Source: Pseudogymnoascus verrucosus
Lineage: Eukaryota
DNA: 64,000 nucleotides
Assembly (NCBI GenBank): GCA_001662655.1
Contig: KV460215.1
Direction: 5' to 3' (one strand)
Part shown: piece by piece, positions 14,667 to 34,269 of the stretch
Numbering within the stretch: position 1 is the stretch's first letter
Layout of the letters: each line of letters begins with the position of its first letter
Program-made: the position numbers and the translations under genes
The notes under the pieces: model-generated
What the model saw: only the letters and a program-made list of their open reading frames with translations
What the model was told of the DNA's origin: nothing
Database searches by the model: none

Positions 14667-16057
14667 ATGCGTTTCTCTACCGGAATCTACACCGCGGCTC
14701 TAGTTGCTGTGGCTGCTGCTGCGCCAAAGTCATCCTCAACCCCAGCCGCGAACCCTACGGCCACTGACCCGGCCGCCGTCTATGCTGCTCAAGCTACAGC
14801 CAAGACCGAGAGTCCAACGAGCCATGTCAAGGGCAAAGTCTTTGACCGCTTCGTAACAATCTGGTTTGAGAATACAGACTTTCAATCAGCTGCCGCCGAA
14901 GGTAAGTTTCAGCCATAATTCCCTGCAATTCTTGCTTCTCGGTGATAACCCAAGCTAATCTATAGAATTGAAGCAAACTTCGAGTTCTTCGCAAAGAAGG
15001 GCATCACTCTGGAGAACTACTTTGCTGTTACGCATCCCAGTGAGCCTAACTACATGGCCGCCGTTGGCGGTGACTACTTCGGGCTGAACGGCGACCCATT
15101 CATCGCCGTGCCAGAGAATGTTTCCACCGTCGTGGATCTTCTCGAGGACAAGAAGATCAGCTGGGGTGTTTATCAGGAAGATATGCCATACAGTGGATTC
15201 CAAGGCTTCTCATGGGTCAACCAAAAAACTGGCAAGAATGACTATGTTCGCAAACACAAGTAAGTCCTCGACCACATGCATATTGAGTAAAAGACTTACA
15301 ATCCAAAAGCCCAGCAGTCTTGTTTAACTCCGTTGCCAACGACGCAGACCGTCTCTCCAAGATCAAGAATCTTACCATGTTCCAGCAGGACTTGAAAGCT
15401 AACAAGTTGCCACAATGGATGTTCATCACACCAAACATGACCAGCGATGCACATGACGCCCCCATCGGCACGGCTGGTGCCTGGCTCCGAACTTTCCTCG
15501 AGCCTCTTCTCAACGACAAGAACTTCATGCAGAACACCATGGTTCTGATCACCTTCGACGAAAACAGCTCGTACCCCAAGCAGAACCGGGCTTTCTCTGT
15601 CCTTCTCGGCGACGCCATCCCCAAGAACCTTGTCGGCACCACCGACTCCAACTTCTACAACCACTACTCCGAGATTGCTACCGTTGAGGCCAACTGGGAT
15701 ACCCACACTCTCGGCCGCTATGATGTGGGCGCCAATGTCTTCAGCAATGTTGCCAAGCACACGAATGACAAGCTGCGTAGCTGGACAGGCACGCCAGCAC
15801 TCGCCGACACCACCTTCAACGCCAGCTATCCTGGTATCTTCCACTCGACGACGTGGGCGCCGCAGCCAGTTCCCAACACCTTGATCAAGGTCAACGGAAG
15901 AACCGTTCTGCCAAAGATCAGGAAGCAATGGGTTTCCCAGCAGAAGAAGACGGTGTATTGTGGACAACTGGAAATTCCGACCTCTGCGAACCCACCCAAG
16001 GGAACATGTCCGGGGCCCTCGGGCAACGACGGGCACTCCCAGCAGCATCACGGCTAA
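14667..16057 (+). CDS. Secreted acid phosphatase, phosphoesterase family
   Basis: Signal peptide, VKGKVFDRFVTIWFENTD, THPSEPNY, YQEDMPY, RKHNP, LPQWMFITPNM, LITFDEN, YNHYS. Introns 14902-14973 and 15260-15309. Confidence 0.92.
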
Positions 16058-16288: not shown

Positions 16289-17524
16289 TTAAAGTTTTGC
16301 GGTAGCTCTCCTATGTTTCACCAACAAAAACCGGGAAAATAAATCGACCTTGCCTACTGTGCCTCCTTCCTTGAAATCCGCTCCCATAATTGCCTTGTAC
16401 TGATCCGGGCGAAACTCGCTGACCAGCAAGAATCCGCTGCGAATGTAATTGGTGCATATGCCGTTTCCACTTGCGCATTTACCATCCGTTGTACCTGCAT
16501 ACTGGCTGTTCCCGAGTGTCATTACATCGATCAACACATTAGCAAATGGTTTCATTTGCTCTGCCGTAATCGCCCAGTTACCGTCAACATAGGCTCGATA
16601 GAAGCCATTGATATCCAGAGACGCGTGATTAGAATCCTCCACGTTATTCTGGTCCATTGCATAGTTCCAGACGTAAATCGGGTTCCCCTTCTTGCTTTTC
16701 TTGATTGTTGATCCACCACCAGTAAAAAACCATTTCAGATTTGCAGTCATAATATTCTTGTATTTAGATACCAACGCGGGGTTATCGCCCAAAATGGTGT
16801 GGGCTGCAACGAGATTCTGGAAGGCATAGTTGAACATCATCTGTTGGTTCCAAGGGACGGCTTGACCTCCCTTGTAGGGAGAATCTTTGGCGAAATACAT
16901 TTTATTGCCATTGGAGAGGTCGAGTAGTCGAGAGAGGATATGTCCAGACATTACTTTATCGGCCTGAGTAAGATATGTTTTGGCTCGCTCAAGGTATGTC
17001 TTGCCATAGTGATTCTTGTCGCCAATTGTAACAGCCTGGTTGTAAAGTGCTTTAGTCCCAAGTATGAGATTCGCACAGCTTGCTAAATGGCCCACCGGAT
17101 CGCCTTGCTCGCCACCCGTGATGATAACTTTCGTGGATGGATCGTTGGGCCAAACTGGCGCAATATCCCCCGTCCAAATCTTGTGCTGCCCAACAGGTTT
17201 CGCAGCTATGTCGTTTCTCTCGGATAACACTGCATCGCAATAACTAAGCATCTTATCGAGAACGGGCTGTTGGCCAGATATCTGATAGACAACACCCATG
17301 GCCTTTGTCTCTTCTCCGCTGTGGCCTTGTGCCCAGTTATTGCCGACGTTGTCCTTCGCGGGCTGCAACGTAGCAATATAGGTGCTGAAAGAATCAAGCT
17401 CCTCCTTGGTGACAGGGCCATCGAAGCTAGTAACCTTCATAGTAGCTCCAAGTACTAAATGTACATGAAGACAGAACATAAGAGCCACTGCGCTGCCGCA
17501 GCTACGGAGGGATGTGAGCATCAT
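16289..17524 (-). CDS. Secreted intronless protein of unknown function (possible alpha/alpha-toroid, carbohydrate-active)
   Basis: 411-aa single-exon ORF with hydrophobic N-terminus. Motifs GEQGDPVGHLA, PWNQQMM, EDSNHA. Confidence 0.75.
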   Translation of the reverse strand: MMLTSLRSCGSAVALMFCLHVHLVLGATMKVTSFDGPVTKEELDSFSTYIATLQPAKDNVGNNWAQGHSGEETKAMGVVYQISGQQPVLDKMLSYCDAVLSERNDIAAKPVGQHKIWTGDIAPVWPNDPSTKVIITGGEQGDPVGHLASCANLILGTKALYNQAVTIGDKNHYGKTYLERAKTYLTQADKVMSGHILSRLLDLSNGNKMYFAKDSPYKGGQAVPWNQQMMFNYAFQNLVAAHTILGDNPALVSKYKNIMTANLKWFFTGGGSTIKKSKKGNPIYVWNYAMDQNNVEDSNHASLDINGFYRAYVDGNWAITAEQMKPFANVLIDVMTLGNSQYAGTTDGKCASGNGICTNYIRSGFLLVSEFRPDQYKAIMGADFKEGGTVGKVDLFSRFLLVKHRRATAKL

Positions 17525-18583
17525 TGTCGAAATCAAAAAGATGCCAAAATATGAGAGAATAGTAAGAATGACTTCTATGAACTTTGGGCGACTTCGCAGC
17601 CATTTTATATCTATTCGTTGAGAAACCTTTAATATAAATGTGCGAATCTAACGCAGGGTCAATTGTGGGGTTGTACAAGCATTTGTGGACTGTAGATCAC
17701 CGGGCGGGCCGCTGTCTTATGCGATATGGTTTTCGGTGAATGAATGCCGAGTGCCTTCCGCTATTAGACAACGTGCAAAATTCTTAGGGAAACGGCAAGG
17801 GTAATGTGTTGGAGATTCGGGGAAACTGGGGTTTGCCGAAAAATTGGCCCTACTTTGGGCCTTTCCCCGAGACATCTCACATGCGAGAGCTGGTGTGAAG
17901 CCAGCTGACCCAGCCGACCAGAAGACCTGGCAAGACCTACATGTAGGATATTCGGCCACCCTCCAGGAACCTTCCATATACAGTAACTACGTAGGTTATT
18001 TAGATAGTCATATAATTTACTTGATCTTTATATTTCTATATACTGTACATACTGCTTGTAATAGAGAAAACCACGCGGTTTTGGGTGTGGATCCCCGTAT
18101 TCTGTGCCCATCTCAATATTCCACAGTAATCATTCCCGACTTCTCTTCTCTTCTAAAATTGCTAATCTATGAGGAATTATAAATGCCACCTGAGCGAGGT
18201 ATTCTGTACAACCAAACTAATGCCTTGAGTTTCAAACATGACACACCACTTTCCTATTTAGGTTATCTACACCGTGGCTCGTAGCAGGGCACTTTACAAC
18301 CTTATCGAGCTTAAATAGACACATCAAGAATACCACAAATTATCATCATAGCCAAGACTGATCTCACATTAATGAAATCCCTTCCATACACCCTAGGTAC
18401 AAATCCCCTTTGTAAGCTCCATCTCAGTATGCCTATCAGTATAATAGGCGTGTTTTAAGACCATTCGCTCGCTTGATCGAGTTTTAATGCCACAGCTTCT
18501 ACAATAAAAAAAGATATTTATAATCTTGAAGTGAGCCATAGGAGTGGAAACAAGGCCTTATATACAAATGACTATTCTTTGAC

Positions 18584-19629
18584 CTAAACAACAAACTTTG
18601 TTTTATTTTCTTCTCCAGCTTCTCTTGCAATCCTTGCGACTTCTTCTTCTCCAGCCTCGCCAAAAATATCATATCCCCACCTAGCTGGGAAATTAAACCT
18701 CTTATGCCTCTCTAATGCATCCAATTCCTTCATCGCACTCTCTGGCAACAATTTATCTTCAAAGTTGCTCTTAATTCTGCTATCCGTGACACTCTTCGGC
18801 AACACGACGTGTCCTGTTTGGACACCCCAGCTAACAAGCACCTGTCCGGGATCCAATCCCAATCCTTTACCAACCTCATGCACCTTCGCATCATCGACTG
18901 TGCGTGGCTCGCCTGTCTGGTTGTTTCCCAGCGGACTGTAAGCTTCCAGTAGAATGCCCTTGGACTTGCAGAAGGCAGCAAGCTCGGGTTGCTGCAGGTA
19001 AGGGTGTTTCTCGATCTGGTTTACTGACGGAATAACTTTGCAGTCCTTAAGAAGCGTCTCCAAATGCGGGATATTGAAATTTGAAATCCCGATAGCGCGG
19101 ACTTTTTTGGTTTCGAGCAACGCTTCCATCGCAGCGTACGTCTTGGTGAAAGGCGTGTCAGAGAGGCGGAAAACGCCAGTCTTTGGGTCTAGGGGAAAGA
19201 ATTTTGGACCGGCGGCGAAGGCGCATGGCCAGTGCATGAGGTACAGGTCAACATATTCTGTTCCGAGATCTGCGAGCGTCTTATTTAATGCTGATTCGAC
19301 GTCTTTGGGTTCGTGAGATGCGTTCCAGAGCTTAGATGTAATAAAGATTTCCTCGCGCTTCACGCCGCTCTTCTTAATGCCTTCTCCAACTTCGGCTTCG
19401 TTGCGGTAAATCGAAGCGCAGTCGATGTGGCGGTAACCGCAACGCAGAGCGGTTTCCACTGCTTGTTCAACCTCGCGAGGAGCTGCTCTAATGCTGATGT
19501 GTTAGCTTTTTGGACTGTGACAAATTGTTTCTTAACAATATAGGATTGGTTTACTTGCTGCCATGTTCCAAACCCCACGGCCGGGATTTTCGCGCCAGTG
19601 TTTAAAGTGAATGTTCGACCTAGAGACAT
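18584..19629 (-). CDS. Aldo-keto reductase (Gcy1/glycerol dehydrogenase-like)
   Basis: IPAVGFGTWQ, GYRHIDCASIY, ITSKLW, DLYLMHWP, AIGISNF, VNQIE, AYSPLG, VLPKS. One intron 19558-19488 with a GC donor. Confidence 0.95.
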
Positions 19630-19860
19630 TTTTTATTTGTTGTACCGAACGTGAACTTGCAAATCGGGTTTTGCACAAGAAAGGGATTGACATAGTATTT
19701 AAAATAAAAAAAACCCAAACTACCCCGCAGGCTAGAGATCACCCCGCTGGCGAACTAGTTACCTATTTCCGGCTCTGGTATATTCAAAATTCGAATCATA
19801 CATAGTCTGGATTTCAGTTAGGGTTGATTCATTCGAATATGGAACACCCATCGTTTTTTG

Positions 19861-19999
19861 GTGGGGTTTGAAGGCAACTTCGGATATTCGGAAAAGGACA
19901 TTTCCGTCCCGCCCCCGCTCTACGCTAGCAAGAAGGGGTATCCCCGCATTCGTCCCCATATATGTCGGTCCGCCAGTTCAACAGTCTTCCGAATCTCCG
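19861..19999. promoter_or_regulatory. CGG-N5-CGG elements and CreA-type sites in the AKR/TF divergent promoter
   Basis: CGGATATTCGGAAA at 19881-19894, reverse-strand CGGAGATTCGG at 19989-19999, GTGGGG at 19861. Confidence 0.65.
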
Positions 20000-20073
20000 G
20001 CAGAATCATCAATCTCATGATTCCGACCCAAACTTGAGCAGACGGGATAGAGGAAAGTGGCATTGAAGCCAAC

Positions 20074-22677
20074 ATGGGCCCCGCCACAGAACTAGGCACC
20101 ACTACCTTAAATGTTGAGAATAGGAAGAGACGAAGGGTCAGCAAAGCATGTGAGAGCTGTCGCATGTAGGTGTTTTTATTTACAACTCGGAGAATTGAGG
20201 TCTACCTATTAGATCCATATTATGGTTCCATTTTCCCTGTAAATTCAGACATGGATAGAAATTTATGCTTCTAATTCAATGGCTTCATGAACTACTGGAA
20301 AATAAGCATGGCTAACAGATTGAAGGAAGAAAATTTCATGCTCAGTTACAAAGCCCTGCATAAGGTGCTGTGAGGACACCATCGTTTGCGTATATGACGT
20401 CCTTGATGGAAGAAAGACGAGAGCAAAAACGAGGCAGCCGAATTCTCCAAGACAATCAACCACCAATACTGCTGTCTCTGTGGGAATAGAGCTTGAAAAA
20501 GCATCTACATCAAACGGTAGTAGTTCAAGTACCAAAGCTGTCTATGACAGCGGAGATCATTATGTCGGAGCTGCCTCGGGGCTATCTTTCTTACAGCAGG
20601 CTGTACAACATATCGAGAGTCAGAAAGGTTCGAACGATGCTGTCGGCAGTGCCGTAGATGTCGAGTACGCAAGCCCGGCTTCAGCTTCAATTTTCAACAG
20701 TGGGGATATGCCATCTCTGTCGCGACCCACCGACAGATTTGTGATGCCAAGTAAGGACGAATCAGATCGCATGCTGGCACGATACTTTGAATTTGCCACT
20801 CCTACCTATCGTTTCTTTCATCGGCCAACTGTTGAGAGTTGGGCGTGCCAGCTATGCTTGCGTCCAGATACGAGCAATTCTAAACAAAAAGAAAGTAGGC
20901 TTGAGGGTGTGAGAGCGGCGGCTGTATATTTGGTGTGGGCGCAGGCGATTGAATATGAAGACATGACTCAAAGAGGGTCAAAATCAAGGTGAGAAAATGA
21001 CATACAGGTTGAGTAATGCTTACTATTGTAGCGCACCTTATTTCGAGAAGGCAGTCTCAATTCTCGAAACCGAACCAGGGCCCCCACAACTCGAGAGTGT
21101 CCAGGCTCGACTCGCAATGTGTCTTTATCTGCTAAGCACGTTCCGTATCAACGAATGTTGGTACCGCTTTGGTATGACAACACTCATAATCATGGCGATG
21201 GGGCTGCATCGCAAAACCGAAACGTCAAGGAAAGTTGGGCTTGTCGAGCAGGAGTGTCGAAAGCGAGCCTTCTGGAGTTCCTACATTTTGGATCGTTATC
21301 TAAGCGTTATGAAGGGTCGACCACGTATATTCCGCGACGAAGATATTGATCAGGAATATCCGGTGAATGTAGATGACGATGACATGGTATTTACAGACAA
21401 AGACTTAATAGCAGTATTGCCTTTGAGAGGACTTTTGGATGCTTCGATCAACCATGCAAAGTTCGTTAACCGTAAAGAACTTCAACGTATAACAACATCG
21501 CTAACTGATGCAGGCTATCTACCATCATGGGAAATGCCACAGATATGCTCTATCCTCTTAGACCTTTGACCCGTGGAGAACTTCAGACGAAAGCGGGCTT
21601 GGTTACGAAGCTCCTCGACGATTGGGAACAAGGTTTACCTCAATTTTTAAGACCAACACATAGAACCTTCACTGGGAAACGGATGTTTGAACGTAAACAC
21701 TCCATGTCAGTAAATTTTAATTTTAAAACGTTAACACAGTGACAGGTCAGAATAGTGTTCTTAAGCTATCACACGCTCATATGCGGATTTTAATCAATCG
21801 TCAATTCCTACTCTCGAATTTTTCAACGCTGGGCCAGGTAGACAGACCTGACGACGATGATTTGGAACATCAGAAATATGTCCGCGACTGTATCAGTGCA
21901 GCGTATGTCATAATCGACACGGGTACGTCTTATTCTACAACCTTTGTATTATCACTGACCCTATTTAGTGGAAGGTTTTGTGGATGATGGCAATCTGTAG
22001 GTTAATCTGCGGCACAAACCATGGAATCACTAACTAATAGTCCCCCTAATTGCAGTATAAAAGGGTTTTGGTTTACACAATATATCGCCCTGTGTGCCAT
22101 CTCAACACTCTACATCTACATCATCCACCATCGCCTTAACCCGAATTCCTTGGTGTCACCAAGCGGTAAAAGCTATTTCGCAGCAGCTGGCAAGTGCCGC
22201 AATTACATCGAGAACCTAGCACCAGAGGGGAGCCATAGTAAGAGGTATAATACGCTGCTGACGCGGTTGAGAAATAGGGCGATGCGGTCAATGGGAGATG
22301 CTGTGGTTGATTCCGAGGGTGACCGAATGAGATATAATGCCACCGAAGTTAGTGGATTGTTGCCGCATAATCACCCGATTGAGCCAGTGTATAATGGGAA
22401 TTTTTACGGGGAAGGGGGTAATAACGAGCGTGGTGTAGGAATGGAGGCAGGCTTTGAGACAGGGGGTCAGGAAGTGGGTATACAAATTCCAGAATACCCA
22501 GACTCCGGCTCCGGCCTTATAATGGAAAATGATACCCTCCAGCTTACTTGGGGATATCTCGACCAGTTAGGTAGGTATTATGAAAGCTATATTGCCTATT
22601 ATTTACTAACAGAGACTTTAGGTTTGCCCGAACACTTTGATGCCTTTAGCACACAGTATGAGGAAGACTACTTTTAG
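20074..22677 (+). CDS. Zn(II)2Cys6 transcription factor with Fungal_trans middle domain, multi-exon
   Basis: RKRRRVSKACESCR...ISCSVTKPCIRCCEDTIVCVY split by an intron. YFEFATPTYRFFH, GLHR, ECRKRAFWSSYILDRYLS..GRP. Confidence 0.9.
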
Positions 22678-22802
22678 AATAAGCTTAAGAATGGTAGATT
22701 TCCACTAATTGTATTTACTGAAACCTTACCAAGAAGTCTTAAATAAGTAACTTCATATCTAAGATGTGCCTTCTAGTTCAAACTATCCCTATAATTTATA
22801 TT

Positions 22803-25800
22803 TTACAATCCTAGAACACCGAAAACCTCTTCTGCTAAATCCTGCGGCATATTCTTCGCATCCACTGGCAAAATATCAATTTCGTCAACCCGTGGTCCTT
22901 CCAAAATAGCCATTTGTGACTCCACCATATCAGCCTTCATATAATGGCCCGTCCGCATCTCCAGCCTTCTAGCCAACTCAACCTTTTTCTCAACCTGTAG
23001 CATCACAAACACGGTTCTAATCCTCTTCCCTACACCCCTCAGTACATCTCGATATCTGCCCTTCAGCGCGGAGCACGCCAGAACTACCACACCCTTACCA
23101 TTCGTTGAGATCTCGAGCTCGGCCTTAGCTCGTAGACGCGCAAGCCACAACCACCTGTCTTCGTCGTCGAGAGCTTGGCCACTCGCCATCTTAGCCAGGG
23201 CTTGGACATCATGGTGCTGGTCGCCCTCGATAAATGAACAATTCAGCTTACGTGCAATCTCTGTGCCTACAGTGGATTTGCCAGCGCCACATGGCCCAGC
23301 GACGACGATGATGGTGCCTTGGATATTTTCCGTGGTTTTCCATGATGTGGTGATGAAATGACCAACGAACTTGTCAACGAGTTCTTGGCTCAGGATCTCC
23401 GCCATCGCGAGAGCCGGCGATAGGCTTTGTGCACGCTGGGTGTTATATTGTAGGCCTTTGCGTACGATGTTGTCGTTGTCATATTTCTTGGTAAAGAAAT
23501 CGAGGAGCTTGATAGGTGGATTTTGCACTGGATCTGGGTTCGACGCCTTTAGACGCGAGATCCATTCACGTTGACCGAGTTCTTCGAACTGCAAGCTGGC
23601 GGCATGGAGTTTTGGGAGAAGGTCGCGCGTCCAGTGGAAGGATTGCGTAGCTACGACGTTTGTGGTTCCAGCCGGGGAGTCCGAGATAGAGATTTCGGAT
23701 ACCGCTTTCGCAACCACATCAACAGGTAGCCAGAGAGGAGACTCATCAAGTGCAGGGATGGCTCCAATGGTCTTGCCGGCTTGTAGAATCAGAGGTATGG
23801 CTTCGGTTGCGTTCCAGATTCCGTGTTGTGTGTCTGCAACAATTTGGCCCACACGTAAGGTGCGTGCTTTCATTCCGGTCTGACATGCGGCTTGGTGTAC
23901 GATGTTCTCTGTCACAAGTTTAGACTGTGCATAGCCCATGTTTTGTGCATAATCCAAGTTGGGCGGGAGGTCCTCAACAACGGCCTCTCCTGGAGGCGTT
24001 GATGCGACGGCGCTGACGGAGGAGCAGAAATTGAATGCTGCAGGTGATGGTCGACCAGCTGACAAGCAAAGGCCCATGAGATGCTTAGCTCCTGTAAAAT
24101 TGAATGATTAGACAATATTATTAGTTCCCTGACAAATTTCACTTACCTGCAATGCAGTCTTTCTCAAAACTCTGGAGACTTAAATTGAAATTCACAGACC
24201 AGGCGCAATGGATCAAGCACGTAATATTGAGGGCAATCTCAGCATATACTGCCGAGCCAAGTCCTAAGTCCTCTTTTGAGAAATCTGATGGAAGCGCGAC
24301 AATTTTTCTTCGAGCTTCAAGGGGCAACTGATGATAACAGCCTCGGGTGTTCATCGAGGATATAACGCGCGTGATGGCATCGCTTTCTGATTTGGCACGA
24401 ACAAAGCAGTAGACTTGTTTAACGCCAGGGAGCAGTACTATTTGGGCTATGATGTGTGCTCCCAGTGACCCAGTTGCGCCAGTCAAAACCTAAATCTTGT
24501 TAAAAGACGAAAGTCATGCCTCAGACATATATGACTTACAATGTACTGGCCTTCATTGGAATTAGGCTTTGGTATGTGATGTTGAAAGCTTCCATATTTT
24601 TCAATTAATTGAGCCATCTGCTCTTGAACCGGTATTGATTTAGAAGTTTGGCCATCCTGTAACAAAACTAGCTCTCTGGTCAGAGCATTAACTGATGGGA
24701 AATCAAAAACAAAATTCATGGCGAGTACCTTCCCAGACACCGGAAGCTTCTTCAGAATGAGCGAACGCAACTGTAAAGCTTGCAAGGAGTCAAGGCCAAC
24801 GGAGAAAAGATCGGTGTCATCGTCAAGCTCTCCTTGGCCATTCAAGGTGCAGACCTTCTCCTTCAAGAAGGCGCGGATCTCAGGCTCTGTGCTTGGAGCA
24901 TTAGTTGATGGTGATAGCTCAGATGTTGAGTAAACATCCTCTATCTCTTTCTCAAAGAGTTTGTAGAACGCTTGGCGAATAACAGTTCCCTTATCTGTTT
25001 GGGGACTATTAAATGGTTAGGAATAGTAGATAATTAATAGCAGTAATAAACTCACTACGTCGAGCTTGCTGGCAGAAGCTTCAACATCTCCACGGAGACT
25101 CTAGCATATCCTGGGGCTGCCGCATTAGATGACTCTACAACTGGCCAGATATGTTCAAGGATCCGGCTTTCAGGCATGCCGGCTGTCTCTTTGGATGGAA
25201 TAATCATCATGCCTAATTGAGGCCTCCCGTTACCGAAAACTACTGCTTCACGGACGTATTTGTTGTCGCGAATAGCCTGTTCCATGTCAGTTGGGCCAAC
25301 TTTCTCTCCGTTGAGAAGTGCGATTGTATCGTCGAGCCGTGCGCTGTACTTCCAAGCGTTTGGGATGCTGGGGTGAGGTGTGAAAAGGTCTTTCGTCGCA
25401 TAAGAACCATCTGATCTGTTTGTCGCCACTTTGGAAGGCCATCCGTCTAACACAACCAATTCGAAAAGGTCCAGTCCCCGAGATTCCCATCTCAGGAAAG
25501 GGATCAAGGTGGCTGATGGCCGTAGGTAGTTCCAAACTTTATCACTGCGGTCTCTGAATGAGGTCATCAATTGACCAGTCTCCGTACTGTTGCGACATAT
25601 ATTAGCAATTAATCTATTGGAATATGAGTCAAATCGCTGTACTAACGTGCCATAGTGACTGATGAGATTTACCCCAGCGCCGACTAGCCTATCCCCCAGA
25701 CTATCAGGGCACGCAGATCCACCAAACATCACCACTTGCAATTTGACGAGAGCCTTAATTCCTTCCTCGGTCTCTCCAAGTAACTTTAGGGCATACGGTA

Positions 25801-26750
25801 CGCCATAAAGTATTTCGAAACTGTGCTCAGCCATGATACTGAGTAGTGTGTTATGGGTGAGTGGTAGATTCGCATTATACATGTAAATCTTCTTCATCGA
25901 TGTGAAGGCTCGAAAAACGCTGCTAATACCATGTGCATGGAATAGTGGTAACGTGATGAACCCTCGCATATTGAGGTTGTTTTCATAACTAGATTGATGG
26001 TTAGTTGTGGCCATGAACCTAAATTGAAGGAGCTTACTTCGTAAGAGCAGCCCTATGAGTTTGAAAAATTGGTTTTGGCAATCCAGTGGATCCCGATGAA
26101 TGGATAATCCAGCAAATTTTCAGAGCCTCAAGCTCGAGATCGAGATGATAATCCAGGCAAGTATCCTGGTCATTCTCTCGAGTTGTAAATGCGTAAGATG
26201 CCGGTTGGGCAATTGGATAAGCGCTTAAATCAGGCATTGTTTTCCGCAATCGCTCTGCGGTCGTAGAAAACGACTCGTGGATAATTATGTCTCGGCATTG
26301 TGTACTCTCCAACAACGACAGGTACGCAGCATCAGATAACCTTGTTGAGAGGAACATCACTGTGAAACCTGACTTGGTCAGTGCAAGCACTGAAATCAAA
26401 TAATCCAGATTAGATGGCCCAAGCAATGCCACCACCTTTTCTTTCTCAGCGGATGACCGTCTTTGCGTCGTGTGTTGGACATATTGCTGTCCGACACGAT
26501 ATGCAAACACATCAAGTTCCCTGTATGTGTATTCGACGTAGTCTGTATTGTGAACTGGGTATGCAAGGATTGGCTCTTCTGGTTGATGGAAAGCTCGGAG
26601 GCGCATCAACTCATCAATGGTATGTGGGACATGATTTGTTGTAAACGTTCGCTGTCGTCTAGAATAGACTAATGAAGTATCGACTGGTGACAAGAAGCTT
26701 TGTGACGAAATATGCTGGATGGTCGAGGAGTGAGCAATATCAGCCGCCAT
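22803..26750 (-). CDS. NRPS-like A-T-R (carboxylic acid reductase type) enzyme with fused C-terminal gluconokinase-like domain, 6 exons
   Basis: Exons 26750-26038, 25988-25647, 25586-25056, 25005-24540, 24489-24147, 24091-22803. A: HSSGSTGLPKP, YGTTETG, TKDL, RLDD..NGEKV, TDKGTVIR. T: LFSVGLDSL. R: TGATGSLG, GYAQSK. Kinase: GPCGAGKST, EGDQHH, LDDEDRWLWL, ACSALK.RYRD. Confidence 0.93.
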
Positions 26751-26953
26751 CGTTGCCGTAGATTGTTGTTGTGGTATTGGTTTATGGCGTTTGATATTCT
26801 TGACTACGCTCAACGATTTTGGCCCTGTCTTTATAGAAGGAGAAGATTCTATGTGGCCAAATTAAGATAAAAAAGTTTTACTCCAAAGATTTAGTTCATC
26901 TGGCTCGGAGTGGCTCGATGTCAAAAAAATGCGAGGGACTGATGGCTACTGGC

Positions 26954-27003
26954 GTGGGGTATTTCCGGCGTAGCGTTGTTTTCCGGATATTCGGAAATCC
27001 GGA
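26954..27003. promoter_or_regulatory. CGG-N5-CGG element and CreA-type site in the NRPS-like/MFS divergent promoter
   Basis: CGGATATTCGGAAA at 26984-26997, identical to 19881-19894. GTGGGG at 26954 and further CCGG triplets nearby. Confidence 0.65.
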
Positions 27004-27300
27004 CTTGCAAACTTTATACCAATACTCGGAGAAAAGCCTACAAGTGCTTGACATGCCTAGGTCTCCAGCACGCTTATTCTTCTCCGCAATTTCCTAGCGA
27101 AGTACCGACCATCTTCCCCGCAATCCAGTGGTGATGGCAGTGGCACTAGTTGGCTAGACTTCACGGATAACCATATTTCATGTACGCAGTATATAAGGTA
27201 AGGTCTTTGGACCTTATTTTTCCCCGCAATCTTAATTCCAATTGAGCATCTTTCAGTTTCACATACCGATACTTGGCATCAAGTTGCTTTCGTCGCCGAA

Positions 27301-29205: not shown

Positions 29206-30891
29206 CTAAGCCTGGTCAAATAGAGGCGACTCTTCCAACATGTCTAGAAAGTCTAGCAAGCCTGCTGTGTCTGATGACGGTGGTAGAGAGGTTTCTTGGT
29301 GTATAACTTGTTCCCGAGGGCTCATCAACACCCAGCATACTGTTCCAAAATATGGCATCGTTAGTTCAAGGCCGGCACCACTTTTCTTCATCCACGAATA
29401 GTTGGCGCCGTCAGCAACCTGCTCCTCAATTCCTACTAACTTCTTTAGGATCTCTACCTCGAAGTTTGGCACATGCATCTCTTCCAATAAGCTAAGAACA
29501 TTATTGACAAGTGCCAGGTCTTGAGGTCGCTGGTGTTCTAGCGAATTTGCTTGGCCAAGTCGATATCCGTCAATATGTGCAAGGAGTAATACACACATGG
29601 CCGTACAAGCCTTCTCTTCAAATCCGAAATACGAGCCTCCCCTGTGAAAGCTGCGGATCACGAGGAAGCGCAAGAGAACCTCACGACTCGCCGAGCAAAC
29701 GACCAATTTGCTATAGGAGACATGTTCGTTTGTCGTAGGAGAGACAAGTGATTTTACGATGTAGGGCTGGTGGAGGACCACTATGAGGTAGTGATGGGTT
29801 AGTTGTGCGGAGAGTGTCGAGGTCTTCTCCAGAACATCGGCTGCAGCTAGACCGTGTAGAGAGCTAAATGACCACCAATCGGATGGCAGGGACCGTGCTA
29901 CTTGCTTTAAGGAGTAGTCAATCTTCAGTGTCTCATCGTACTCCGGCTCCCCTTGCCGCTGCATGCGTAGATTTCGTGCGATTATACGCCCTGAGACCAC
30001 GACATGAATGTATTTTAATTTTGACAGTGCATCGCCTCGAGGATCTGAGAAGTTGTTGTCTTCCACGGCAAATGGAAGTCCTAATCTCAACGACATGTAG
30101 CGGTCTGCCATGAGGAGAAGAAACCATATGCCCTCCGCGCGGTCCGTCATCTCGGTCACACCTAGCCCTAACAGCTGGGCGATAGCTAGGGCTCGACGAA
30201 ATCTCAGCCAAGCAACACGCGGGTTTCCGTTGTTGATATGATAGGTTGCTTCCAGAGTCAGCGCTTCCAACCCATCTAGAGAGTTCATTAAGTCGTCTTT
30301 AGACATGACATGCTGTGATGCAATTTCAATATAGCGTGCAGCTTCGTCCACCTGACCATTTGATTGTTGCAAGCAGATTGCGAGTCGTATCAATCTGCGG
30401 GCGAACTGTACTGGATGAGCAGATGGAGGCGGTGGCTCCTGCTGCACAGCACCCACCGCCCGTCCTGTTGGGGTGGGCATCAGGGTAAACTTTCCATGCT
30501 CTATGATTACTGCAGTAGTCGCTGGCGGTGGGAGAATCGAGTACAGGTACCTTCCCACAGAGAAGCTGGAGATTGACTGTGGTACGCTAAGTAGCATTGT
30601 GCGATTTGGCGATTTGTTTTTTTGTTCCTGTTGACCACGCTGTCGTAGCAGCTGGTCAACAAGCGTCTCGACACGGTCAAGATTATTCTCCATCTGTCCA
30701 CGGCTTTCGCTTTCGCCTGCACTTTCGTTATCTACAACGAACTCCTGACTGACGCATAACAGCCCTCGTTGCTGACAGGACAGACACACAGAGCATGGCG
30801 GCGTAACTTCGCAGCGTATCTTGCGGCGTTTGCACTCCCAGCAGCTGAATGTTTTCTTTCGCACCTTTAGCCTCTTGAGTGGTCTTGACAT
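29206..30891 (-). CDS. Zn(II)2Cys6 transcription factor (single exon)
   Basis: RKKTFSCWECKRRKIRC..PCSVCLSCQQRGLLC, AIAQLLGL, DRYMSLRLGLP, LHQPY. Confidence 0.9.
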   Translation of the reverse strand: MSRPLKRLKVRKKTFSCWECKRRKIRCEVTPPCSVCLSCQQRGLLCVSQEFVVDNESAGESESRGQMENNLDRVETLVDQLLRQRGQQEQKNKSPNRTMLLSVPQSISSFSVGRYLYSILPPPATTAVIIEHGKFTLMPTPTGRAVGAVQQEPPPPSAHPVQFARRLIRLAICLQQSNGQVDEAARYIEIASQHVMSKDDLMNSLDGLEALTLEATYHINNGNPRVAWLRFRRALAIAQLLGLGVTEMTDRAEGIWFLLLMADRYMSLRLGLPFAVEDNNFSDPRGDALSKLKYIHVVVSGRIIARNLRMQRQGEPEYDETLKIDYSLKQVARSLPSDWWSFSSLHGLAAADVLEKTSTLSAQLTHHYLIVVLHQPYIVKSLVSPTTNEHVSYSKLVVCSASREVLLRFLVIRSFHRGGSYFGFEEKACTAMCVLLLAHIDGYRLGQANSLEHQRPQDLALVNNVLSLLEEMHVPNFEVEILKKLVGIEEQVADGANYSWMKKSGAGLELTMPYFGTVCWVLMSPREQVIHQETSLPPSSDTAGLLDFLDMLEESPLFDQA

Positions 30892-32268: not shown

Positions 32269-32919
32269 GATATCGATGCTTTCGCTGGCGTAGCGTTGAG
32301 GATACAATATTCAATTCTTCGAGCTTTAAACTTGATTATAAAATGAATTGCAGCCCATGATGCTTCAGCCTCCATATATACTGTTGGTTCTGTAGTCGGA
32401 TTTTCGGGTTTGCACCTTATCTCCAGAACTCTGCTTTATCTCAGAGGTCCTCCTGGGCGCAAAGACCACAGCCTGGGCCCACATGACGTAGTGTGGCGTC
32501 GCTAGCGCCGCCAGGCATAACGGTACCGATTGCCAAGACAATAGTGTTCCAGATACCACGAAGTCCATCAACGAAACGGCGAATAAAACGAATTTAATCT
32601 GATGCACGAAATACGGACATACTGCGAATATCGGGAATACCGCAAATATCGGGAATTTTCGTCCGTATTGTACATGAGTAGGATTGTTTCACGAGAAACA
32701 TGTAAGGATAATAGCACTACACGCAGCAGACGAAGCGTGAACAATTACTATCACCGAGCAATCGGACTTTGCATGCACTATATAGATGCATGACTATGCC
32801 ACCTTCTTTAAATCCTAACTTCAAGAGCAATAATAACTGCAGTAGACGACACACCAATATCAGTATCAGCAATCAAACCTCAAATCATCTTCCTGCCCAT
32901 TAGGTCAATCTTCCTCACC

Positions 32920-33429: not shown

Positions 33430-33690
33430 AAATTGGAGGCGAGGTGTGCGGCCGAGAAAGCACGAGATAGGAATCTCAGCGCCCCTTCGGTTCTTGCGCA
33501 GGGTGATGACATCTTTGCTATTCCAGGCACGACCAAGATCCATCGTCTGGCAGAAAATTTGGGCAGTATGTCAATTTCTTTGTCCTCGGAAGAGGAGAAA
33601 GCAGTCCGCGAGTTAGCTAAAGGTGTTATGGGAGGCCGAGTTCAAAAACTAATGGGCCATACTTTTGCTGATACACCGCAATTGGAAAAA
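33430..33690 (+). pseudogene. C-terminal fragment of an aldo-keto reductase (YakC-like)
   Basis: VLAQGDDIFAIPGTTKIHRLAENLGSMSISLSSEE...FADTPQL. The N-terminal barrel is absent and there is no ATG start. Confidence 0.75.
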
Positions 33691-34269
33691 GTGTGGGGAT
33701 GCACCTTAAGGTTTTGCAGAAGTAATCCTACCCTGCCATTTCATCCATAGTCTTAGTTATGAAGATATTTACATCCTCGGCAATTTAAAGTTACATTAAC
33801 TATGCTGTTAGTAGTATTGTTTATTATCACTTCCAACACTTTAATCACGTGGTTACGTAGCGAAAAGGTGTGGTTTCCGAGCGCGAACCAAACTTGTAGA
33901 ATTCTATGGGGCTACGGCCTTTACTTATGCCGTGGCCCCTAAGCTACTCTACCGTACGAAACCATGCCCGTACACATAAGGTTTCAGGAAGTTGGTGCCT
34001 TAGGGGCCTGATTCCTAGGGCCGGAATTACAAAGGGTGCCATATGCGCCAATTGCTAACATACCTCGGGAATTATGAGTACTCGGGAATTACCCCTGTAG
34101 CACTTCCCCCCCGCACAAATGCGGGGAGCCAAGGTGACTTAACTCCATTCCCGCGGCAGACCAGGATGTCATCCACCCCGACTCGATTGATATAATGATG
34201 TGCTACCCGCGGCAAGGTAAGCTAAATACAAATCCTCCTACAATCTCAACAAAACCTTGAATCGCCACG

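Follow-up and report, generated by a model that had tools for sequence, protein, structure and literature searches.

A CGG-type element common to both divergent promoters of a Pseudogymnoascus carboxylate reductase-gluconokinase cluster and its most likely reader, the Zn2Cys6 activator encoded in the cluster

Zn2Cys6 regulators and the element under study

When considered from the point of view of DNA recognition, the closest described counterpart of the element treated here is the site of TerR, the Zn2Cys6 activator of the terrein cluster of Aspergillus terreus, which binds TCGGHHWYHCGGH, a CGG-N5-CGG direct repeat (PMC4360782). TerR is described as occupying the first half-site mainly as a monomer that then recruits a second one, and as needing a basic N-terminal stretch; inverted pairs and pairs spaced by 4 nucleotides (nt) were not bound (PMC4360782). 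RhaR/PDR-1 (CGG-X11-CCG), CLR-1 (CGGN5CGGNCCG) and AmyR (CGGN8(C/A)GG) are likewise Zn2Cys6 carbon-source regulators reading CGG triplets, and for Gal4-type proteins it is described that the linker sets the spacing (PMC4245848). The subject of this report is a 14-nt word, CGGATATTCGGAAA, that stands in both divergent promoters of a four-gene cluster within a 64,000-nt stretch of Pseudogymnoascus verrucosus DNA (the window), and that, judged from its make-up and distribution, most likely serves as the binding site of the activator encoded in the cluster.

The cis-element is of a familiar sort, namely a cluster-specific Zn2Cys6 site accompanied by CreA-type sites, and the trait kept by the family is the half-site. 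The site itself is unsurprising; the main value lies in a pathway lead, as the motif work ties an orphan cluster to sugar diacids, and, as far as the literature searched shows, it provides the first motif candidate for the regulator of this conserved orphan cluster. The window proteins are 98-100% identical to named Pseudogymnoascus proteins, and the four genes are arranged as follows.

18584..19629, minus strand: aldo-keto reductase (AKR) with one intron near the 5' end; ATG at 19629; Pfam PF00248, E 6.5e-43
20074..22677, plus strand: Zn2Cys6 + Fungal_trans factor, ~712 amino acids (aa), DNA-binding domain at residues ~14-110; ATG at 20074
22803..26750, minus strand: carboxylate reductase resembling a nonribosomal peptide synthetase (NRPS), with a fused gluconokinase (A-T-R-GntK), 1227 aa; ATG at 26750; from Pfam
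27301..~29049 (3' end read by eye), plus strand: major facilitator superfamily (MFS) transporter of the anion:cation symporter type; Pfam MFS_1

Four direct repeats in two divergent promoters

Judged from the ATG positions, both intergenic regions are divergent promoters (AKR/factor and A-T-R-kinase/MFS), and, as an earlier sequence-only reading of this DNA had noticed, the 14-mer recurs exactly in the two, at 19881-19894 and 26984-26997, both times on the plus strand and with a GTGGGG starting 20 and 30 nt before the respective copy (gaps of 14 and 24 nt). The minus-strand variant pointed out in the same reading, CGGAGATTCGGAAG, is real as well, its span being 19986-19999 and not 19989-19999; a fourth repeat that had been missed, CGGAAATCCGGA at 26992, overlaps the second copy of the 14-mer. 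All four repeats (starts 19881, 19988, 26984 and 26992) have the form CGGA-N-AT-Y-CGGA, that is CGGA-N4-CGGA, and those at 26984 and 26992 together make up a triple CGG-N5-CGG-N5-CGG. Promoter 1 holds two repeats and two lone half-sites, promoter 2 two overlapping repeats and further half-sites; the two promoters have a second word, TATTTCCGGC, in common, and CGG triplets are present in the promoters of all cluster genes. The features are given below, together with their state in two related sequencing runs, X18 and X16, which were aligned to promoter 1 only.

19630..20073: promoter 1, divergent between AKR and factor genes, 444 nt; from the sequence, fully covered by run X18
19723..19947: five CreA-type SYGGRG sites (19723, 19742, 19861, 19913, 19942), 0/36 bases changed in X18; a sixth SYGGRG of promoter 1, at 19995, overlaps site C
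19764..19773, minus strand: lone half-site (TATTTCCGGC on the plus strand), from the sequence, the word being also in promoter 2; at position 19764 X18 carries the family-consensus base
19880..19894, plus strand: site A, T-CGG-ATATT-CGG-AAA, fits the TerR consensus TCGGHHWYHCGGH; unchanged in X18 and X16
19899..19906, minus strand: lone half-site CGGAAATG, the top enriched 8-mer in homologous promoters; unchanged in X18, where the gap to site A is one base longer
19986..19999, minus strand: site C, CGG-AGATT-CGG-AAG (alternatively CCG-N6-CGG), 75 nt upstream of the factor ATG; unchanged in X18
26751..27300: promoter 2, divergent between A-T-R-GntK and MFS genes, 550 nt; from the sequence, outside the read comparison
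26954..26969, plus strand: GTGGGG (CreA type) with the half-site word TATTTCCGGC immediately behind it
26980..27003, plus strand: site B, triple CGG-N5-CGG-N5-CGG (26984-27002) with an overlapping everted TTTCCG-N6-CGGAAA; TerR consensus match at 26991
27063..27227, minus strand: four more SYGGRG sites (27063, 27082, 27116, 27222)

Rarity was assessed in the 30.2 Mb of the organism's own genome and against 122 non-coding-like 450-nt windows drawn from 400 kb of it. The genome-wide scan proposed in the sequence-only reading returns two exact copies of the 14-mer, both in the cluster, and 15 copies with one mismatch (8 for the reversed control). In the separate search that located the copies and the variant, with up to two mismatches allowed, four matches stand against 0.45 expected, a number reached in 1 of 100 shuffles. 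By itself, a common 14-mer is modest evidence. Among random pairs of the non-coding-like windows, 0.4% (29/7381) share one, and 64 kb offer many such pairs, as would suit an identity that arose by chance or as the relic of a small duplication, without function. Against this explanation stand the composition of the word, two CGG/CCG triplets being found in 0 of those 29 chance-shared 14-mers, the end of the identity at 14 nt, with flanks that lack homology, and the existence of four repeats, their conservation in X18 and the enrichment of the half-site in homologous promoters; we regard it as highly improbable.

CGGAAA occurs three times in each promoter, compared with a background mean of 0.23, and three copies are reached in 0/122 background windows, as is the promoter level of CGG-N5-CGG. 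CGGANATTCGGAAR has six copies genome-wide, three of them in the cluster (control 0); of the other three, one lies within an open reading frame (ORF), one where a Gtr1/RagA gene begins and one in a degenerate stretch. For CGGANATYCGGA, a pattern chosen after the sites had been seen, there are 28 genome-wide copies (control 23), four in the cluster. The extended motif is confined to the cluster, its three other genomic copies being coding or degenerate, and an inspection of the 13 copies with one mismatch, and of one more, showed no matching promoter cluster that would point to an unlinked regulon.

Conservation of the half-site and drift of the spacing

At close range, X18 differs from promoter 1 of the window in 45 of 442 places (~10%). 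In this one run and promoter, none of the changes falls on the 28 dyad bases (P 0.045), the 24 half-site core bases (P 0.07), the 36 SYGGRG bases (P 0.018) or the 71 motif bases combined (P 2e-4). X16 covers 181 nt of promoter 1 and carries two changes, both outside the motifs. An inverted CGG-N12-CCG pair, reaching from site A to the half-site at 19899, was also considered and discarded, its spacing being one base different in X18.

At longer range, a profile built from 35 enzyme homologues yielded 52 metagenome loci (designated by L numbers below), in which a factor of the same family is co-located 28 times, an AKR 19 times and an MFS transporter 26 times. For the 24 loci of at least 13 kb the counts are 20, 15 and 18, and all four genes are together in 13. 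Factor and enzyme are also adjacent by locus tag in Fonsecaea, Cladophialophora, Coleophoma, Cadophora, Pseudogymnoascus and Penicillium, so that the named genomes with this adjacency comprise Leotiomycetes and Eurotiomycetes. The four-gene cluster occurs across filamentous ascomycetes.

From these loci, 45 homologous promoters were scored (27 enzyme, 12 AKR and 6 factor promoters), after exclusion of upstream regions of insufficient length or with an uncertain start, and of 32 duplicates, i.e., near-identical loci or one divergent region counted from both sides. Controls were 74 windows from the same loci, 33 when GC-matched. The spacing that the sequence-only reading had expected to find conserved in orthologous promoters is not: CGG-N5-CGG is present in 11/45 compared with 9.7 after shuffling, CGGANATTCGG in 0/45, and CGG-N5-CGG is accordingly rejected as a family-wide motif. 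The half-site gives another picture. CGGAAA is found in 31/45 homologous promoters vs 8/74 controls, CGGAAANG in 23/45 vs 1/74 and CGGAAATG in 15/45 vs 0/74; an unbiased word count ranks CGGAAATG first among the 8-mers and CCCCGC and CGGAAA first among the 6-mers. The trimer that most commonly follows CGG is AAA, with 70 of 724 cases (the next one has 27) vs 8/609 in the controls, and with GC-matched controls there are 1.56 vs 0.18 sites per window. The sites peak 300-500 nt upstream of the matched coding start. Conservation thus resides in the half-site CGGAAA(N)G, and the spacing varies by lineage.

It is nevertheless important to stress what weighs against reading these patterns as binding sites of the cluster's activator. 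The footprint in X18 comes from a single run and a single promoter; taken by themselves, the upstream CGG halves (0/16 changed, P 0.17) do not reach significance, and a 58-nt block without listed motifs is likewise unchanged. Outside the genus, CGG-N5-CGG is at chance level in the 45 homologous promoters. The controls are non-coding-like windows and not annotated promoters, and the 45 promoters share descent. Finally, CGGAAA is absent from 14/45 promoters, including those scored for L024 and L029, the loci whose factors are the most closely related. As regards loci without a nearby factor, L028, L031 and L035 lack CGGAAA, but L044 has three.

Two other dyads, CGG-N6-CGG (25/45) and CCG-N7-CGG (18/45), looked enriched and were not accepted as family dyads, because four everted matches lie in the AKR first exon and no spacing dominates among strong half-sites. 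The factor of L029 groups in a clade with the window factor (Shimodaira-Hasegawa-like approximate likelihood-ratio test, SH-aLRT, 98, in a quick version of the factor tree), and its locus has an identical 14-mer of its own, CAGTTCCGACGGAA, in both promoters, which is an everted pair with one base between. In the same tree, the nearest factors from other genera are those of Halenospora and Tricladium. In 10 of 12 loci only 9-11 nt are common to a locus's own two promoters, and 14-nt identity is found in 0/132 cross-locus promoter pairs. Everted half-site pairs with N1 occur in L029, L024 and L030, and with N7 in both promoters of L030. The linker behind the sixth cysteine differs between the factor clades concerned, and on the model of Gal4-type proteins we infer that a change of linker may be tied to the change of spacing in the cluster factors.

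This variation bears on how the window sites might be read by the same factor. A different geometry, either an everted CCG-N6-CGG dimer or independent monomers on single half-sites, would make the N5 spacing a by-product of overlapping CCGG words. Sites B and C can both be written as CCG-N6-CGG, the second copy of the 14-mer within B being also a TTTCCG-N6-CGGAAA palindrome; everted pairs stand in both promoters of one locus, with N1 (L029) or N7 (L030), and the 45 promoters show no dominant spacing of strong half-sites. However, site A has TCG instead of CCG, all four repeats fit CGGA-N4-CGGA, site B extends as a third direct copy, and the promoter level of CCG-N6-CGG is reached in 3/122 background windows, compared with 0/122 for CGG-N5-CGG. 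The everted or independent arrangement is possible, if doubtful, and a monomer mode with direct geometry, by analogy with TerR, is slightly favoured.

The factor that would read the site

The sequence-only reading had assigned the site, as CGG-N5-CGG, to the factor encoded at 20074-22677. What holds of this is that a Zn2Cys6-type CGG element specific to the cluster exists; the N5 spacing, which is not kept in homologous promoters, fits the own lineage, with four copies that are unchanged in one related run (as far as that run covers them, in promoter 1). Binding of the sites by the cluster factor is quite probable. For this assignment speak its co-location with the enzyme, the half-site found in the promoter of the factor gene itself, and the case of the A. 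nidulans cluster. In the latter, AN1678 is described as activating its own gene and binding its own promoter by chromatin immunoprecipitation (PMC10714999). AN1680 is an A-T-R-GntK homologue, and AN1678, the factor of its cluster, is a putative counterpart of the window factor. A Penicillium factor, encoded next to an A-T-R-GntK-type enzyme and recovered with the same profile, shares 31% identity with that of the window. Autoregulation by the cluster factor, as proposed in the sequence-only reading, would carry over from the A. nidulans cluster. One observation speaks against strong autoregulation: the A. niger factor barely responds on galactarate (5.8, 9.4 and 6.5 fragments per kilobase per million reads, FPKM). 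That the 14-mer is part of an upstream activating sequence of the cluster is, taken as a whole, the best explanation, and a reasonably likely one.

The TerR consensus TCGGHHWYHCGGH has one match per window promoter (19880 and 26991) at ~0.003 expected per promoter, with 191 copies genome-wide, so that the site would work like a TerR site. As with TerR, a cluster-specific Zn2Cys6 activator is accompanied by several sites in a bidirectional promoter and has a basic stretch (RKRRR) before the zinc cluster; both CGG-contacting lysines are present, and by eye no conserved heptad repeat was seen after the zinc cluster in the factor alignment. In contrast with TerR, the cluster and its chemistry are others, the window repeat is extended by AAA and the spacing varies within the factor family. 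The strict consensus does not fit site C or the repeat of site B that starts at 26984, and it is found in 0/45 homologous promoters.

In the mechanism that we propose, the factor would recognise the half-site (T)CGGA(AA), several of which are offered per promoter, and in Pseudogymnoascus these half-sites would be stacked as CGG-N5-CGG direct repeats with an 8-bp period, TerR-like, with one monomer settling on the first half-site and then recruiting the second. Since one set of sites between divergent genes can serve two genes, two promoters cover all four, and switching on both would include the factor gene itself and thereby create positive feedback.

Another Zn2Cys6 protein as the reader has to be weighed as well: a wide-domain sugar regulator of the type of CLR-1 or AmyR/COL-26, a protein like TerR, or the product of a second Zn2Cys6 gene (29206-30891, minus strand, directly after the MFS gene). 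Many factors use CGG half-sites; AmyR is reported to bind also CGGAAATTTAA, and CLR-1 to bind CGGN5CGGNCCG (PMC5468973). Dozens of related factors are encoded in the genome, and the second gene abuts the MFS gene. In contrast, the full sites of the known carbon-source regulators are absent from the window promoters or at background level: the CLR-1 site has 0 matches there and in 0/45 homologous promoters, the RhaR/PDR-1 site 0 and 6/45, and the AmyR dyad one and 25/45, near its background of 374 per 400 kb. The second factor has 0 matches in the 52 homologous loci, many of which are short, and the extended motif is restricted to the cluster. A foreign reader is thus unlikely, and identity of the cluster factor with RhaR was rejected, as the Arg-Lys pair of RhaR is Lys-Lys in the window factor and the RhaR site is absent.

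The start codon of the factor gene shows turnover. Where the window reads ATA (20047) and ATG (20074), X18 reads ATG and CTG, respectively, and the factor proteins of relatives begin with MEES/MEET, nine codons earlier.

The CreA-type overlay

The several CCCCGC/SYGGRG sites noticed in the sequence-only reading are borne out by counting, with six in promoter 1 and five in promoter 2 against a mean of 1.47 in the 122 background windows, of which 1/122 and 3/122 reach six and five, respectively. In homologous promoters SYGGRG is 3.1-fold enriched, or 2.1-fold after GC matching. The window thus resembles CreA/Cre1 systems in having multiple SYGGRG sites in both promoters, kept in a relative and enriched in homologues; it differs in that closely spaced SYGGRG pairs, the described functional form for CreA, are only partly present. 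Repression of the cluster by CreA is likely, and the interspersed SYGGRG sites would allow it to hold the genes silent as long as glucose is present; like autoregulation, glucose repression would carry over from the A. nidulans cluster. The sequence-only reading had gone further and taken the CreA sites as independent support for carbon utilisation. SYGGRG alone is insufficient for that, because CreA acts on other gene sets too.

A possible role in sugar-acid breakdown

A role in carbon utilisation is better supported by the galactarate induction of the A. niger homologue than by SYGGRG sites. A. nidulans AN1678-AN1681, the An01g14850 region of A. niger and A. flavus cluster 18 (AFLA_054270) all combine an A-T-R-GntK enzyme with AKR, MFS and Zn2Cys6 neighbours, as the window does, but in another gene order and with the enzyme in another subclade (midpoint-rooted FastTree, 28 rows). 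The A. niger enzyme ASPNIDRAFT_170633 (= 1082594), 47% identical to that of the window, goes from 0.016 to 50.5 and 60.4 FPKM at 0, 5 and 18 h on galactarate, and its neighbouring AKR from 0.25 to 22 and 45. In regularised-log values, 1082594 is given as 3.7/4.6/3.6 on galacturonate, 4.7/7.0 on glucuronate and 11.4-11.8 on galactarate (PMC5153877 Table S1). In A. nidulans, all four cluster genes are reported to be up on carbon starvation and on arabinogalactan relative to glucose, and one of four on lactose (PMC8780418).

The protein domains of the window were examined in the same light. The A-T-R-GntK enzyme scores 170 bits with TIGR01746 and has intact motifs in its A, T and R domains. Its GntK domain (TIGR01313, 154 bits vs a cut-off of 113.75; match to 1knq, E 1e-25) has the features of a gluconokinase as regards cut-off, P-loop and substrate residues, and the kinase P-loop and arginines are invariant in 35/35 homologues. 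The structures nearest to the AKR are AKR1A-type aldehyde reductases, and its catalytic D, Y, K and H motifs are present. The best NCBIfam model for the MFS transporter is TIGR00893, D-galactonate transporter (E 4.5e-35, under its cut-off). An ESM Atlas look-up returned generic family names only.

The same gene set could instead form a secondary-metabolite or detoxification unit, in which an aromatic or aliphatic acid is reduced and then phosphorylated. Prediction tools are reported to class the cluster as secondary metabolism (A. flavus cluster 18, AN1680 cluster), over-expression of AN1678 is described as changing mycelial colour, and some loci are flanked by genes for hydrolases or cyclase-family proteins; among solved structures, the R domain comes closest to 8aep, probably that of the broad-range Neurospora carboxylic acid reductase. 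Against such a unit speak the strong induction of the A. niger homologue on galactarate, not galacturonate, the intact gluconokinase domain, the anion-symporter-type MFS protein, and the lactonase-family neighbours in L028 and L031. Furthermore, no conserved synthase or tailoring genes were found in the loci scanned, and the predicted pocket, from a motif alignment with manually assigned positions, is polar and without the amino-acid-binding Asp. A secondary-metabolite or detoxification role is conceivable but improbable, and sugar-acid catabolism, by analogy with the A. niger genes, is the moderately likely role of the cluster.

Several observations nonetheless weigh against sugar-acid catabolism. 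The A. niger MFS gene barely responds on galactarate (7.5, 16.8 and 17.4 FPKM), and use of galactarate is reported to be blocked by deletion of another gene, 39114 (PMC5153877). The window enzyme is 47-48% identical to the Aspergillus proteins and belongs to another subclade of a family with paralogues, so that, from sequence, it and the Aspergillus genes are best called homologues. The kinase domain is absent in several family members, L028, L029, L031 and L048 among them, the own genome has a separate gluconokinase-like gene, and the cluster is, as said, catalogued under secondary metabolism, usually of the silent kind. In the A. niger galactarate study, 1082594 is not among the seven genes deleted (PMC5153877). 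That study does offer a parallel, in that 39114, a predicted adenylation/reductase enzyme, and the AKR 1090836 are described as needed for sugar diacid use, although the authors did not demonstrate the activity of 39114, and for the earlier test in yeast extract no addition of ATP is reported (PMC5153877); unlike in the window cluster, 39114 is a 3.2-kb gene that lies on another chromosome and is unlinked to AKR 1090836. Orthology of the cluster enzyme with 39114 was rejected, because 3.2 kb leave no room for the kinase and because AKR and factor are unlinked.

In the scheme that we propose, the MFS protein would import the sugar acid, the A-T-R part would reduce one carboxyl to the aldehyde, the AKR would reduce the aldehyde further, and the GntK domain would phosphorylate the resulting aldonate. 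When D-glucarate is reduced at its C6 carboxyl, L-guluronate results; a further reduction turns this into D-gluconate, on which GntK acts. The route would lead from D-glucarate via L-guluronate and D-gluconate to 6-phosphogluconate and into the pentose phosphate pathway, and it is favoured because its stereochemistry closes on a normal gluconokinase and accounts for all four genes; galactarate would then be a cross-inducing epimer. Glucarate as the substrate is a tentative suggestion. Equally speculative is the wider picture of an undescribed reductive aldarate pathway, governed by an aldarate-responsive factor family that would keep CGGAAA and re-arrange its geometry with the linker.

A 2019 review states that a galactarate pathway had not been described for fungi (PMC6353982), and in a literature search that left most subscription journals outside, neither a binding motif nor a substrate or product of the cluster was found. 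The architecture itself is already on record, as A-T-R-gntK in A. flavus cluster 18, and PFICI_12508 is listed without biochemistry. Glucarate and galactarate are described as platform chemicals whose fungal production is limited by breakdown in the host. If the proposal is true, the cluster could be knocked out to improve glucarate production, it would supply a carboxylate reductase acting on sugar acids as well as an aldarate-inducible bidirectional promoter, and its homologues would form a natural series for how a Zn2Cys6 family alters half-site spacing.

Neighbouring genes and further observations

Among the homologous loci, some other neighbours recur: a PF04199 cyclase-family gene in L026, L027, L045 and L065, an SMP-30/gluconolactonase gene beside the kinase-less enzymes of L028 and L031, and alpha/beta hydrolases in L037, L038 and L066. 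In the database gene models P0408, P0290 and P0160, the A-T-R enzyme is joined to the factor or to the AKR, probably because neighbouring genes were merged. In Aspergillus egyptiacus the cluster is present twice, in one case with an enzyme that lacks the kinase. In L015 (~1240-1560), a stray motif copy lies in what by eye is the degenerate remnant of a protein kinase, following an NRPS condensation domain.

In the window, an ORF of ~414 aa (16289-17533, minus strand) with a signal-peptide-like start and no Pfam match adjoins the cluster. A phosphoesterase-family gene (14668-16057) lies near it, as in A. niger (1118174) and L057, through either microsynteny or chance. On the other side, the stretch ~33430-33690 appears by eye to be the C-terminal remnant of another AKR gene without its 5' part. 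The second Zn2Cys6 gene introduced above may belong to a neighbouring group of short-chain dehydrogenase/reductase (SDR) and acyl-CoA dehydrogenase genes. Ahead of the SDR gene, the divergent region (32627-32656) carries a repeated CGG motif, AATATCGGGAAT, in two copies at a distance of 18 nt, and CTCGGGAATTA in two copies 17 nt apart before the acyl-CoA dehydrogenase gene (34064-34091), both being candidate sites of the second factor.

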